Shown here: piece after piece, positions 17,499 through 24,090 of the stretch
How the letters are laid out: each line of letters opens with the position of its first letter
Numbering within the stretch: the first letter of the stretch is position 1
Origin: an uncultured Actinomycetes bacterium
Lineage (GTDB): Bacteria > Actinomycetota > Acidimicrobiia > IMCC26256 > PALSA-610
DNA: 64,000 nt
Assembly: GCA_963836365.1 (NCBI GenBank)
Contig: CAWIJC010000002.1
Coordinates: 617,058 to 681,057 of the forward strand
Reading direction: 5' to 3'
Program-made: the position numbers and the translations under genes
Notes under the pieces: generated by a model
Told to the model about the DNA's origin: nothing
What the model saw: the letters and a program-made list of their open reading frames with translations, nothing else
Database searches by the model: none

Positions 17499-19934
17499 CT
17501 ACCGCCGAGGACTGTCCAAACGATTGGCGGTGGCGACGGGAACGACACGCTCGAGCTTCTCGGGTGACGTCTTGGACCCGCCGCCTTCGCGAGCGGCGCC
17601 GCGCACGCCCGACGCGGGCAACACGAGGCAACCGTCGGCGGACACGAACGCGAGCTCGTCGGCGGCGAGTGCCACCGCGACGACCTTGCCACGCGCCTTG
17701 TCGATCTTGGCGGCCTTCAATCCGGAGCCGCCACGCGTCTGCACGGGGAACTCGTCGATGCTCGTGCGCTTGGCGTAGCCGTGCTCGGTCGCGATCACCA
17801 CCGACTCCTCGTGCGCGACCGCGCACACGCCGACCACACGGTCGTCGCCCTTCACGCGGATGCCGCGGATCCCGCCTGCGCTGCGGCCGACCGGACGCAC
17901 GTCGTCTTCGGGGAACCGGATGCCCTGGCCGTTCGCGGTCACGAGCAACAGCTCGTACTCATCCCAACCGGGGAACACCGCGACGATGCGATCGCCGGCA
18001 GTGACCTTCATGGCGACGATACCGTTCTGGCGCCCCGACGCCTCCGCGAACTCACCGAGGCTCGTACGCTTCACTGCGCCGCTCGCGGTGACGAACACAA
18101 GGTTCGGGTGCTCCTCGTGGAGGCGCGCGTCCACGACCGCCACGACCTTCTCGCCGTCGCCGAACTGGAACAGGTTCTGTGCGGCGGTGAGTCGTTCCTT
18201 CGGCAGCTCGTGCACGATCGCGCGATAGGCGCGCCCGCGATCGGTGAAGAACAGCACGCCGGCAAGCGCGGTGGTGGCGATTGCTTGCGCCACCGCGTCG
18301 CGCTCCCCCGGATTCGCGATCTTGGCCGCGCGCGGCCGCTCGGGCACCGCCCGCACGTAGCCGCGTGCGGTCACAGTCACGATGTACGGCTCGTCTTCCA
18401 CGAGTTCCACGACGTCGATCGTGCCAGTGTCGTCGCCGACGATCTGCGAGCGGCGAGGCTCCTTGTGCGCGTCGCGTATCGCCGTGAGCTCGTCCTTGAT
18501 CACGGCCATCAGCACGTCGCGCTTGGCGAGTATCCGCGTCAAGTCCTTGATCTGCTTCTGCAGCTCGGCAAGCTCCTTGGTGAGCTCTTCGATGCCGAGC
18601 TGCGTGAGGCGGCCGAGCGGCATGTCGAGGATGTGGTTCGCCTGGATCTCGGAGAATCCGAAGCGCCTACCCATCAGGGCGGCACGCGCGGCGGCGCGAT
18701 CTTTCGACGCGTGGATCACCTTCACGACCGCGTCGATCATGTCGACGGCTTTCGCGAGCCCTTCGAGGATGTGTAGGCGCGCTTCGGCCTTCTCGAGCCG
18801 GAACTGCGTGCGGCGGGTGACGACGGCCACTTGATGGTCGAGCCAGCCGCGCAGCCCGTCGGCCAACGTGATCGTGTGCGGCACGCCGCCGACGAGCGCC
18901 ACCATGTTCACCGGGAACGTCGTCTGTGCCTGCGTGTGCTTGAACAGGTTGTTGAGCACGATCTGCGGGTTGGTATCGGCGCGCAACTCGATCACGAGGC
19001 GCGTTTTGCCCTGGCCCGATTCGTTGCGGATGTCGCGAACGCCGTCGATCTTGCCCGACTCGACGAGTTCCGCGAGCTTGCCCGCGATCGCGTCGACGCT
19101 CGTCTGGAACGGAATCTCGGTGAGCACGATCGCCTGCCCGCCGCGCTTTGCGCCGGACTCGATCGTGTGCACTGCGCGCAAGCGCACGGTGCCACGTCCG
19201 GTTCGATACGCGTCCTTGATGCCGTCGTCGCCCATGATCAGCGCACCCGTCGGGAAGTCGGGGCCCTTCACGTGGCGCATGAGCTCCGAGAGAGTCGCGT
19301 CGGGCTTGTCGATGAGACGCATCGCGGCGTTGCAGATCTCGGCGAGGTTGTGCGGCGGGATGTTGGTCGCCATGCCGACCGCGATGCCCTGCGAACCGTT
19401 GACCAGCAGGTTCGGGAACCTCGACGGCAACACGACCGGCTCGGTACGTGAGGCGTCGTAGTTCGATTCGTTGTCGACGGTGCCTTCATCGATGCCCGCG
19501 AGCATCTCCGTCGCCAGCGTCGACAGCCGGCACTCGGTGTAGCGCGAGGCGGCGGGCGGATCGGACGGCGAACCGAAGTTGCCGTGCTTGTCGATCAGCG
19601 GCGCAGTCAGCGAGAACGGCTGGCCCATGCGCACGAGTGCCTCGTAGATCGAGCTGTCGCCGTGCGGGTGGTAGTTGGCCATCACCTCGCCGACGACGCG
19701 CGCGCACTTCACGAACGGACGGTCGGGCCGCAGGTTCGCGTCGTGCATCGCCCAGAGGATGCGTCGCTGCACGGGCTTGAGTCCGTCGCGCACGTCGGGC
19801 AGCGCACGCGACACGATGACGCTCATCGAGTACTCGAGGAACGCGGCCTCGACCTCCTCGGCGAGCGTGCGCGTCGGCACGTCGGTCGCCGCCGGCTCGA
19901 GCGTCAACTGATTGGTCGTCTTCCTGCGAGCCAT
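17499..19934 (-). CDS. type IIA DNA topoisomerase subunit A (GyrA/ParC family; no GyrA-box, topo IV-like)
   Basis: From [10 protein letters not shown] (ATG 19934, RBS GGAGGA). [30 protein letters not shown] and [20 protein letters not shown] are diagnostic. The C-terminal beta-pinwheel lacks the QRRGGKG motif. Confidence 0.8.
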
Positions 19935-20004
19935 CCCATTCCTCCCCGGGCGTGTGCAGGGGTGCGTCTGCGACACCCCACACACGCCCCCGTGCGCCCC
20001 GACG

Positions 20005-21990: not shown

Positions 21991-22020
21991 CGTGCCAACT
22001 CGTTCGGAGCCGGCGGCCGC

Positions 22021-24090
22021 TCAGGCTCGCCCCAGGAACTCGGCAACCTCATCGGGCCGGATCGTCGGACCGAACGCCATGCCCGATCCGACGTCACAGC
22101 CGAGCTCGTGCAAGCGGCGCGCGTGGCTCGCGCTTTGCACGCCCGTCGCGACAACGACGCGTCCGAGCGCGCGGGCGTACTGCACGATCGCGCCGAGCAG
22201 TGCACCGCTCACATCGTCGACGGCCTCGTTCACCGCCGCGACGAGCGGGCCCGCGACCGTGATCGCCGGCGTCGGCAGCGTTCGCAGTTGCTGCAACGAC
22301 GACACGGCCGAGCCGAAGTCGCGCAGCGCGACGCCGAGACCGAGCTCGCCGAGTGCGCTCGCGCCACGCGATGCGGCATCGACGTCGTGCGCGACAGCCG
22401 CCTCGGGCACGCCGATCCAGCAACGCGTCGGCGTGACGTTGCTGCGCTGCAACATGTCGCGCACGAGCCCGGGAAACAGCGGCGAGAGCGCGCCCGAACG
22501 CGTCAGCGTGATGCCGAGCCCGGGGATGATCGGTCCCGGTGGGTGCGCCTCCCACTCGGCGAGCTGCGACACGACCGTGCGCACCAGCGCGACATCGAGC
22601 GCGCGCGCAATGCCCGCTTGCTCGACGACCTGTTCGATCGCATCGCCCTCGCGCAACCCCGCGCGCTCCCAGTCGACCGCGCAGTCGAAGCCCATCAGCG
22701 CGCCGGTCGAGAGTTGCGCGATCGGCGTGCACAGCATGGGAAGCCGCGGCTCGTCGAGCAATCGCGTCACAGTGCGTGCGATGCGGCGGCCTTGCGCGAG
22801 CTGGCGGCGGACGCCTTCGTCGAACAGCTCGACGCGACCGCGTCCCAACCGCTTCGCCCGATACGTCGCGAGGTCCGCGTTCGAGAGCAACTGGTCGGCC
22901 GAGAGCGGATCGTCACCGCGCGCACTCGCGATTCCGATGCTGGCGCCGATCAACACCTCGTGCCCGTGAATGTCGTAGGGATCGCTGACGGTTGCGAGCA
23001 AGCGGTCGGCGAGCGTCGACGCCGGCGTGACACCGTCCATGTCGGGACAGCACACGACGAACTCGTCGCCGCCAAGTCGTACACACAGATCGCCGTCGCG
23101 TACCGCGCCGCGTAACCGTTCCGCGACGTGCACGAGCAGCTCGTCGCCGGCTGCATGTCCGAGCATGTCGTTGACGCGCTTGAAGCCGTCGAGGTCGATG
23201 AACAAGAGCGCGATGCCCTGACCGCTGCGACGCGCGCGACCGAGCGCGGCGTTCAACTCTTCGACGAGCAGTGCGCGGCTGCCCAACCCCGTGAGTCGAT
23301 CGTGCGTCGCGTCGTACTCGAGGCGTTCCTCGAGCCGCTGCCGCTCGGTGACATCCTCGAGCGTGCCGAGGAAACCGCTCAGCGAACCGTCTTCTCGGCG
23401 CAACGGCACCCACCGCGCGCTCACCCACCGCATGACGCCCTCGGTCGTCGTCAGCCGGACCTTGGACGGCTTCGCATCGCCGCCCTGGGCCGCGTGACGT
23501 TGTTGGGCGCGCATCGCTTCCAGGTCGGCGGGGTGAATCGCCGCGCACCACCCGCCGCCCAGCGCCTCCCCTGCCGACAGTCCGGTGAGCCGCTCGAAAG
23601 CGTGGTTCACGAACACGCATGTGTCGTCGGCTTCGATCTCGCAGATGCCGATCGGGCTCTCGGCCACGAGCGTCTTCCATCGCGCCTCGCGCTCGAACAC
23701 CGTGTGGTCGATGACGCGTACGAGGATCCCCTGCACGTCGGGATGATCGAGCAGGTTGCGGAACGCGAGCGTCATCGTGTGCCAGCCGTCGAGGTCGTTG
23801 CGAACGCGGGCGCGCACCTCGACGTCGAGGCCCGGCAGCGCTCGGCTCTCGTCGAGCGCGGCTTGGATCGGCCCGTAGTCGTCCTGGTGCACCCAGTCGG
23901 CGAGCCGGCCCGTGAGATCGGCGCGGCTGAAGCCGCCGCGCATGCCGAGCTCGCCGAGCAACATGCGCGGCCGCAGGTCGGCGCCGAGGATCGCGATTGC
24001 ATCCGAGAGCGCGTCGAGCACGCCCGGATCCCGGACGTCGAGCGGTTGGACCGCGGCGCGTGCCGCGATGGTTGGCGGCACCCCGGCCAT
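22021..24090 (-). CDS. PAS-PAS-GGDEF-EAL signalling protein; GGDEF intact (RLGGDEFVV), EAL domain degenerate (no EAL / DDFGTGYSS motifs)
   Basis: Domain motifs are read from the translation; 689 aa, intact. Confidence 0.75.
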   Translation of the reverse strand: MAGVPPTIAARAAVQPLDVRDPGVLDALSDAIAILGADLRPRMLLGELGMRGGFSRADLTGRLADWVHQDDYGPIQAALDESRALPGLDVEVRARVRNDLDGWHTMTLAFRNLLDHPDVQGILVRVIDHTVFEREARWKTLVAESPIGICEIEADDTCVFVNHAFERLTGLSAGEALGGGWCAAIHPADLEAMRAQQRHAAQGGDAKPSKVRLTTTEGVMRWVSARWVPLRREDGSLSGFLGTLEDVTERQRLEERLEYDATHDRLTGLGSRALLVEELNAALGRARRSGQGIALLFIDLDGFKRVNDMLGHAAGDELLVHVAERLRGAVRDGDLCVRLGGDEFVVCCPDMDGVTPASTLADRLLATVSDPYDIHGHEVLIGASIGIASARGDDPLSADQLLSNADLATYRAKRLGRGRVELFDEGVRRQLAQGRRIARTVTRLLDEPRLPMLCTPIAQLSTGALMGFDCAVDWERAGLREGDAIEQVVEQAGIARALDVALVRTVVSQLAEWEAHPPGPIIPGLGITLTRSGALSPLFPGLVRDMLQRSNVTPTRCWIGVPEAAVAHDVDAASRGASALGELGLGVALRDFGSAVSSLQQLRTLPTPAITVAGPLVAAVNEAVDDVSGALLGAIVQYARALGRVVVATGVQSASHARRLHELGCDVGSGMAFGPTIRPDEVAEFLGRA

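Follow-up and report, generated by a model that had tools for sequence, protein, structure and literature searches.

The window analyzed here, a 64-kb stretch (~68% G+C) of contig CAWIJC010000002.1 from an uncultured member of the Acidimicrobiia, carries at positions 17499 to 24090 three co-directional minus-strand genes, namely, a PAS-GGDEF-EAL gene, a gene for a GyrB-like subunit (B), and a gene for a GyrA-like subunit (A) of a type IIA topoisomerase. Open reading frames (ORFs) as well as Pfam and NCBIfam matches bear out the preliminary description of the locus, which had reported a B-then-A topoisomerase pair directly downstream of a co-directional PAS-GGDEF-EAL gene. On the basis of the sequence comparisons presented here, we suggest that B and A quite probably form a self-contained operon for a gyrase-derived, class-specific decatenase/relaxase of the topoisomerase IV (topo IV) kind and that their GGDEF-EAL neighbor is incidental. 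The features of the locus, in the order of transcription, are as follows.

22021-24090, minus strand: PAS-GGDEF-EAL gene, 689 amino acids (aa) (Pfam and NCBIfam domains, alignment to 5m3c and 4rnh)
22669-22692, 22309-22326, and 22132-22149, minus strand: degenerate EAL motifs DCA, RDFG, and TGVQ, respectively (alignment to 5m3c and 4rnh)
21958-22020, minus strand: 63-bp gap from the GGDEF-EAL stop to the conserved B start, with a candidate promoter block
20005-21957, minus strand: B subunit gene, 650 aa from the ATG at 21957 (longest ORF from the ATG at 21990, 661 aa)
19935-20004, minus strand: spacer of 70 bp between the B and A genes, containing a GC-rich hairpin (19948-19989) and GGAGG (19941-19945)
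17499-19934, minus strand: A subunit gene, 811 aa from the ATG at 19934 (longest ORF to the GTG at 19985)
18321-18347, minus strand: blade-1 site of the missing GyrA-box, VPER/PRAAK, the slash marking the gap (alignments with canonical GyrAs)
17721-17741, minus strand: blade-5 box-like heptad QTRGGSG, A residues 732 to 738

Both subunits retain the ATPase, Toprim, and cleavage residues of type IIA enzymes. B has the Pfam domains HATPase_c, DNA_gyraseB, Toprim, and DNA_gyraseB_C and carries the ATPase motif EVVDNAVDE, the GGLHGVG lid, the QTK loop, and the Toprim motifs EGDSAGG, PLRGKILNVE, and DADVDG. A consists of DNA_topoisoIV and DNA_gyraseA_C domains; its cleavage core includes R131-Y132 in AASRYTE (19533-19553) and HPHGD (19656-19670), and its C-terminal domain (CTD) is six-bladed (residues ~515 to 800; 17535-18392). 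The AlphaFold2 model of A has a mean predicted local distance difference test score of 87.4 and an all-beta CTD.

Profile models place the pair close to gyrase and far from the classical topo IV families. A falls under the ParC equivalog cutoffs of TIGR01061 (601.8 versus 813.25) and TIGR01062 (516 versus 628.9), and B falls under the ParE equivalog cutoffs of TIGR01058 (692.4 versus 899.95) and TIGR01055 (575.7 versus 723.35). With the GyrA model TIGR01063, A scored 872.9 bits, below the cutoff of 877; NCBIfam GyrA scores were 868 and 884 for family relatives (under the cutoffs) and 1067 for the canonical Acidimicrobiia protein P0125. B scored 861.6 bits with TIGR01059 (cutoff 882.4), a model that does not discriminate here because canonical Acidimicrobiia GyrBs also score 852 to 889. 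A exceeded the cutoff of the broader model NF004044, “DNA topoisomerase (ATP-hydrolyzing)” (766.7 bits; cutoff 654), from which, we assume, the Prokaryotic Genome Annotation Pipeline (PGAP) derives “DNA gyrase/topoisomerase IV subunit A,” the name carried by relatives of window A. Among solved structures, gyrases were the best matches for both subunits (8s7k at the top), and topo IV chains ranked lower; a fold search with the AlphaFold2 model matched full-length GyrA and ParC chains alike (template-modeling scores of 0.77 and 0.85 to integrative models) and was therefore nondiscriminating.

Alignments of window A to canonical Acidimicrobiia GyrAs (n = 74) and to cluster representatives (n = 150) showed an 8-residue gap exactly at the canonical FRTQGRGG of blade 1, where the canonical context reads ...FRTQGRGGRG... 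and window A reads VPER/PRAAK; the same gap is present in all family relatives aligned. The absence of a GyrA-box, as reported in the preliminary description, thus holds for blade 1 but not for blade 5, where the box-like QTRGGSG is found. This blade-5 heptad is kept as Q[TA]RGG[SA]G in 8/8 in-clade loci, and canonical Acidimicrobiia GyrAs have QGRGGQG at the equivalent place. Window A has further lost four residues in the blade-2 loop, and its blade-6 motif is degenerate; all six blades are present. Its CTD is also less basic than that of canonical Acidimicrobiia GyrAs, with a net charge of +2.3 versus +5.5 and 37 versus 43 Lys plus Arg residues. The pair is therefore probably not a bona fide gyrase, given the absence of the blade-1 box, nor is it a curated ParC/ParE, given the cutoffs it fails.

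Deletion or substitution of the blade-1 GyrA-box abolishes wrapping and supercoiling and leaves decatenation intact (PMC8216471; PMC2647321), and loss of the GyrA-box has been reported to suffice for the conversion of gyrase to an enzyme of the topo IV type (PMC8216471). Of the two boxes of Mycobacterium tuberculosis gyrase, the one in blade 1 is needed to wrap and supercoil DNA, and the one in blade 5 supports decatenation (PMC8216471). With the catalytic residues kept and the blade-1 box gone, these published data support, by inference, the earlier suggestion that the enzyme is topo IV-like (PMC8216471). A second, near-consensus box in blade 5 (around residue 717, e.g., RQGRGGQGV), as in M. 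tuberculosis, was also observed in many of the canonical GyrAs (loci L009 to L080); by analogy, lineages that have no box-less paralogue may rely on this canonical blade-5 box for decatenation.

The window pair belongs to a broad family. Two protein searches recovered at least 160 clusters of ~805-aa relatives, 57 to 100% identical to window A, almost all of them from metagenomes and metagenome-assembled genomes (MAGs) of uncultured Acidimicrobiia. All family members checked for the box (8 loci, 11 close relatives sampled, and 38 more distant ones) are without it. A scan of species genomes yielded at least 8 family loci (78 to 86% identity) and at least 72 canonical gyrase loci, the latter with QGRGGRG in blade 1 and with identities to the window pair of ~50% for A and 57 to 66% for B. 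The two groups also differ in their genomic surroundings. Among the matches listed, dnaA-dnaN-recF lies directly upstream of gyrB-gyrA in 64/64 informative canonical loci, whereas none of these genes was found near the family pair at the seven loci with upstream sequence (L002, L004 to L007, L081, and L082). DnaA, DnaN, and RecF homologues are likewise absent from the whole 64-kb window, in agreement with the non-origin location assigned to the pair beforehand.

Neighbor-joining trees with bootstrap were built with our own scripts to place both subunits among their relatives, as the preliminary description had proposed. In the tree of A, the box-less family forms a clade (85 to 100% bootstrap), and the canonical Acidimicrobiia GyrAs (n = 74, origin linked and box bearing) form another that excludes it (99 to 100%); in the tree of B, family and canonical GyrB are split at 100%. 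The divergence is unevenly distributed along A. Over its N-terminal 500 residues, family A shares 59% identity with Acidimicrobiia GyrA, compared with 47% for the other GyrAs that have a box and 48% for the other proteins that lack one, and the identity to each canonical subclade is uniform (57 to 62%). The family CTD, in contrast, is only 35% identical to that of canonical Acidimicrobiia, a distance equal to that between the latter and the CTDs of other phyla. In 95% of replicates of the core-only tree, the seven remaining GyrA representatives fell outside a group made up of the family and canonical Acidimicrobiia GyrA (plus two stray box-less representatives); the P0169/P0199 group did so in 90%. 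The PGAP name of P0169 is “DNA topoisomerase IV subunit A [Actinomycetota bacterium],” and members of its group score higher with NF004044 than with the GyrA model, the reverse of the window family; we take this group to be the general actinobacterial topo IV type. The phylogeny thus sets the family apart from the canonical GyrA clade while placing its core nearest to that clade rather than to ParC families or to the PGAP-named group. Together with the box deletion, these patterns lead us to lean, with moderate confidence, toward the view that the family may represent a topo IV-like enzyme that arose from gyrase independently and specifically in this class, via a clean 8-residue deletion.

Some relatives show additional features. 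P0127, a neighboring box-less protein, represents a rare lineage whose next-best matches are annotated as, and resemble, canonical GyrAs (e.g., that of Rhabdothermincola sediminis). P0123 (1,244 aa; box-less family) and P0126 (1,063 aa; canonical GyrA) each contain an intein-looking insertion of ~240 to 440 residues directly after the catalytic RY (AAARY/C... and AAMRY/C...), where the GyrA intein of mycobacteria is located as well.

For B, the start is most likely the ATG at 21957 rather than that at 21990, since relatives align from its Met, the gene call of a relative is 650 aa, and the sequence upstream of it is conserved; the gap to the GGDEF-EAL stop is then 63 bp, and the 30-bp gap given in the preliminary description applies only to the longest B ORF, from the ATG at 21990. 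For A, the start is most likely the ATG at 19934 and not the GTG at 19985, because the 811-aa product is identical to a database protein (P0001) and GGAGG lies 6 nt upstream.

Immediately before the conserved B start, the gap contains the block GGCGCAnCnGTCACnTACCGT with a −10-like TANNNT (TACCGT) at 21964-21969, 7 nt before the ATG at 21957. The block GGCGCAnCnGTCACnTAC(C/G)(G/C)T, followed by 6 to 8 nt and then ATG, is present in 6/6 in-clade loci, including L004 and L007, which have no GGDEF-EAL gene, and no Shine-Dalgarno sequence precedes the B start in these six loci. A TANNNT motif at short spacing from an ATG is the geometry of an actinobacterial −10 element driving a leaderless mRNA. 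On the strength of its conservation, the block is the predicted promoter of a leaderless B-A transcript. A consensus scan of the gap found neither a sigma-70-type promoter nor a terminator. Hence, of the two signals that the preliminary description had named as evidence against co-transcription with the GGDEF-EAL gene, a terminator is not predicted, and a conserved promoter-like block, itself a prediction, is present. A longer block, GGCGCAnCnGTCAC, and the upstream sequence GAAAC(C/G)CGATC are also conserved before the B start (window positions 21964-21990; L002 and L004 to L007); they could form a putative regulator binding site, e.g., for supercoiling-sensitive control.

Downstream of B, the spacer to A is 70 bp in the window, compared with 10 to 14 bp in most relatives and ~80 bp in L004 (L004 2152-2227). 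Its hairpin folds at −37.7 kcal/mol, which is unexceptional (z = −1.6), and no second copy of the hairpin sequence was found elsewhere in the window. Two unrelated palindromes have been inserted at this same B-A site, the window having the GC-rich hairpin and L004 a different, perfect palindrome. On the far side of A, a convergent plus-strand gene for an Rv2466c/DsbA-like protein (16758-17471) lies 27 bp past the A gene, indicating that the operon ends with A. A B-A operon structure is not obligatory in more distant relatives, as the distant family member L081 (5306-12463; MAG DASWIA01) has B and A split by an opposite-strand aldo/keto reductase gene and an HTH-HipA toxin-antitoxin pair.

The upstream gene encodes a protein with an intact GGDEF active site and RxxD I-site (RDGD-x5-GGDEF, 23059-23100) and with most EAL catalytic residues replaced (EAL to DCA, metal-binding N to T, ExxE to GxxE, DDFG to RDFG, KxD lost, EGVE to TGVQ, and QG to SG). 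This residue-level alignment to 5m3c and 4rnh confirms the combination of intact GGDEF and dead EAL recognized earlier, and the orthologues in L002, L005, and L006 have the same motif states, including RDFG. The gene lies upstream of B in 4/8 loci (the window, L002, L005, and L006) and is missing from the other four, i.e., L004 and L007, which belong to the same ~80%-identity clade, and the distant L081 and L082. In L004 and L007, a divergently transcribed gene ~60 to 100 bp from B takes its place, and the distribution of the GGDEF-EAL gene on the A-subunit tree requires one gain and one loss inside the ~80%-identity clade. The L002 copy (5768-7932) is broken into four pieces in different frames by at least three frame changes, whereas its B and A have none, which suggests gene decay or else long-read assembly errors. 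Single frame changes were also seen in B of L005 and in the GGDEF-EAL gene of L006.

From the short gap, the preliminary description had proposed that co-transcription links cyclic di-GMP (c-di-GMP) sensing to the topoisomerase. Such a coupling would have been new, and an operon of all three genes in which c-di-GMP controls the topoisomerase, by expression or by direct binding, would fit the co-directional arrangement, the 30- to 63-bp gap, the lack of a predicted terminator, and the recurrence of the adjacency in three other loci. The evidence nevertheless does not support it and makes this arrangement very improbable: the GGDEF-EAL gene comes and goes within a single clade and is missing from half of the loci, its L002 copy is frame-broken next to unbroken B and A genes, and B is preceded by a conserved promoter-like element of its own whether or not the GGDEF-EAL neighbor is there. 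Moreover, a second c-di-GMP gene encoding a 340-aa PAS-GGDEF protein is located 15 kb away (39239-40261, plus strand), implying that such neighbors are not rare in the source genome, and an Rfam scan near the operon matched no c-di-GMP riboswitch or other RNA family; a tRNA scan there was negative as well. The adjacency of the GGDEF-EAL gene to the topoisomerase genes is, on these comparisons, best seen as incidental.

We therefore propose the following for the B-A pair itself. B and A would encode an A2B2 type IIA topoisomerase that descended from an Acidimicrobiia gyrase and has lost the supercoiling device. Judging from the published gyrase mutants, without a blade-1 box the enzyme would be unable to hold a positive DNA wrap and so would introduce no negative supercoils. 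It would instead use plain ATP-dependent strand passage to decatenate and unknot daughter DNA and to relax supercoils, as topo IV does, while a canonical origin-linked gyrBA elsewhere in the same genome would supply negative supercoiling. The presence of this canonical gyrase is inferred from the near universality of gyrase, the strict origin linkage of canonical gyrBA, the location of the family loci elsewhere, and the concentration of divergence in the CTD. In this scheme, the family would have arisen from the Acidimicrobiia gyrase lineage and not from the classical ParC/ParE lineages, with function changed mainly via the CTD; transcription of B-A would be driven by a leaderless-type promoter of its own, just before the ATG at 21957, and the PAS-GGDEF-EAL gene would be a recently acquired, dispensable neighbor.

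Several observations weigh against this proposal. Without a predicted terminator between the GGDEF-EAL gene and B, read-through transcription is possible. A scores 909.3 bits with the GyrA model NF004043, above its cutoff of 902. The trees are neighbor-joining trees with deep nodes unresolved, and they include no named ParC/ParE, Streptomyces, or TopoNM sequences. Among the matches listed, no genome has both pairs (family only in at least 8, canonical gyrA only in at least 72); the scan was pattern limited, and the absence of co-occurrence is uninformative rather than contrary to paralogy. Finally, the core and B sit at the edge of within-class canonical diversity, as those of a divergent, deep-branching orthologue also would. 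The last two points, in particular, are what would be expected if the pair were the sole type IIA topoisomerase of its host, that is, the orthologous gyrase of deep-branching Acidimicrobiia that moved off the origin and lost its box. Core and B identities of 59% and 63% at the lower edge of the within-class range, the GyrB-like scores of B, the branching of the family outside the canonical clade, and the failure to find a canonical gyrase in any family genome among the matches listed all fit this idea, and cross-matching ~160 family proteins with ~115 canonical GyrAs gave no contig in common (canonical P0318 and family P0054 are from different MAGs). Still, we regard it as extremely improbable. 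Gyrase is near universal, with Aquifex aeolicus called the only organism known to be without a functional one (PMC8216471); the origin-linked arrangement seen in every informative canonical locus listed occurs in no family locus; and CTD-concentrated divergence is the usual mark of a function-changed paralogue. One family member also comes from a MAG labeled Acidimicrobiales, an order name that many genomes with canonical gyrase bear as well, which argues for paralogy. Were the sole-enzyme explanation true, a widespread, apparently mesophilic, uncultured Acidimicrobiia lineage of soil bacteria would live without a conventional supercoiling gyrase, a state so far reported only for the hyperthermophile A. 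aeolicus.

The paralogue might alternatively be a second, specialized supercoiling gyrase (e.g., a stress- or drug-tolerant one) that wraps DNA via the basic residues of the blade-1 PERPRAAK and the blade-5 box. The NF004043 score, a B subunit indistinguishable from GyrB by model score, the retention of six blades and of the blade-5 box-like motif, and the gyrases found as best solved-structure matches speak for this. We consider it unlikely, because the gyrases tested could no longer wrap or supercoil DNA once the blade-1 box had been deleted or substituted (PMC8216471), a further deletion affects blade 2 of the less basic CTD, and other family members fall under the GyrA cutoffs (868 and 884). 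To the further suggestion, made in the preliminary description, of a TopoNM-like atypical enzyme, here one that introduces positive supercoils, we attach hardly any probability. The pair shares with TopoNM only the B-then-A arrangement, an actinobacterial host, a location off the origin, and the lack of a GyrA-box, while by profile scores and structure matches it is close to gyrase, and its family is widespread; with B scoring like canonical GyrB and A at the GyrA cutoff, the likeness is not supported, as judged against the published description of TopoNM (PMC8084294) only. The topo IV-like operon descended from gyrase remains the reading that we favor.

Known systems help to place such an enzyme. 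The nearest characterized functional analogue is topo IV of Streptomyces coelicolor (ParE SCO5822 and ParC SCO5836), which was purified and found to decatenate and relax DNA with no supercoiling (PMC3905888), the activity predicted for the window enzyme. It, too, is a second type IIA enzyme in an actinobacterium, with a gyrase-like sequence and a location off oriC, but its genes are 13 kb apart in opposite orientations, whereas the window pair is a B-A operon. The closest conceptual parallel is the A. aeolicus “GyrA,” which, in the account that PMC8216471 gives of Tretter, Lerman, and Berger (2010), groups with gyrases in phylogeny, has no canonical GyrA-box, and belongs to an enzyme that acts as a topo IV. 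In both cases, a changed CTD would have led from gyrase to topo IV. However, Aquifex, a hyperthermophile, has no other type IIA enzyme, while the window host is expected to have a canonical gyrase as well; in the window family, a clean deletion of 8 residues took out the box, and the hosts are uncultured Acidimicrobiia known only from environmental metagenome assemblies.

By sequence, the pair is nearest to the gyrases of canonical Acidimicrobiia (50 to 54% identity for A and 58 to 67% for B) and of M. tuberculosis (the latter with two GyrA-boxes), with which it has the six-bladed CTD and the blade-5 box-like motif in common; it differs from canonical gyrase in having no blade-1 box, no dnaA-dnaN-recF linkage, and a CTD that is 35% identical and less basic. 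It resembles classical ParC/ParE in its box-less A, its domain architecture, and its predicted activity, but it scores far below the equivalog cutoffs and is closer to gyrases than to any solved topo IV. TopoNM of Mycobacterium smegmatis is also encoded by adjacent B-like and A-like genes in an actinobacterium and is additional to gyrase, yet it has been reported to be highly divergent and nearly species specific and to introduce positive supercoils (PMC8084294), whereas the window pair resembles gyrase and is one of a broad family.

To find another type IIA enzyme, one without the box, is in itself no surprise, since its function would be that of a textbook topo IV. The value of the enzyme is evolutionary and practical: a gyrase-like core and B combined with a precise box deletion would be a natural version of the laboratory conversion of gyrase to topo IV. 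It bears on the old question of topo IV origins, in which a single versus repeated origin of topo IV-like enzymes from gyrase was left open by Forterre and Gadelle (PMC2647321), and the system is experimentally tractable. The family also exposes an annotation problem, in that public pipelines call its members “DNA gyrase subunit A” and window A just passes one GyrA cutoff.

The remainder of the window offers a few minor observations. The surroundings of the locus (1496-10621, 24132-28602, and 37252-43213) are rich in lipid/steroid-type catabolic genes, including those for thiolase-like proteins, a ChsH2-like OB-fold protein, a MaoC hydratase, amidohydrolases, acyl-CoA ligases, and a Zn-dehydrogenase, and genes for mycothiol-related enzymes, for TetR regulators, and for the ATPases of ABC transporters (three genes, 49253-55246) also occur there; none of these catabolic, transport, or regulator genes is tied to DNA topology. 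The convergent Rv2466c/DsbA-like gene is of the mycothiol-dependent reductase family. A 160-aa minus-strand ORF after A (16938-17420) was rejected as a gene, its tblastn conservation in all relatives being the shadow of this conserved plus-strand gene. A beta-lactamase-like ORF (15726-16919, minus strand) overlaps the 5′ end of the same gene (16758-17471), which implies that one of the two starts is mis-set. At 12525-14819, two overlapping ORFs lie on opposite strands (721 aa, plus; 698 aa, minus); neither has a Pfam match, and the GC content by codon position favors one frame. A tRNA-Arg (CCT) gene at 61277-61350 (plus strand) is the sole RNA gene detected in the window.

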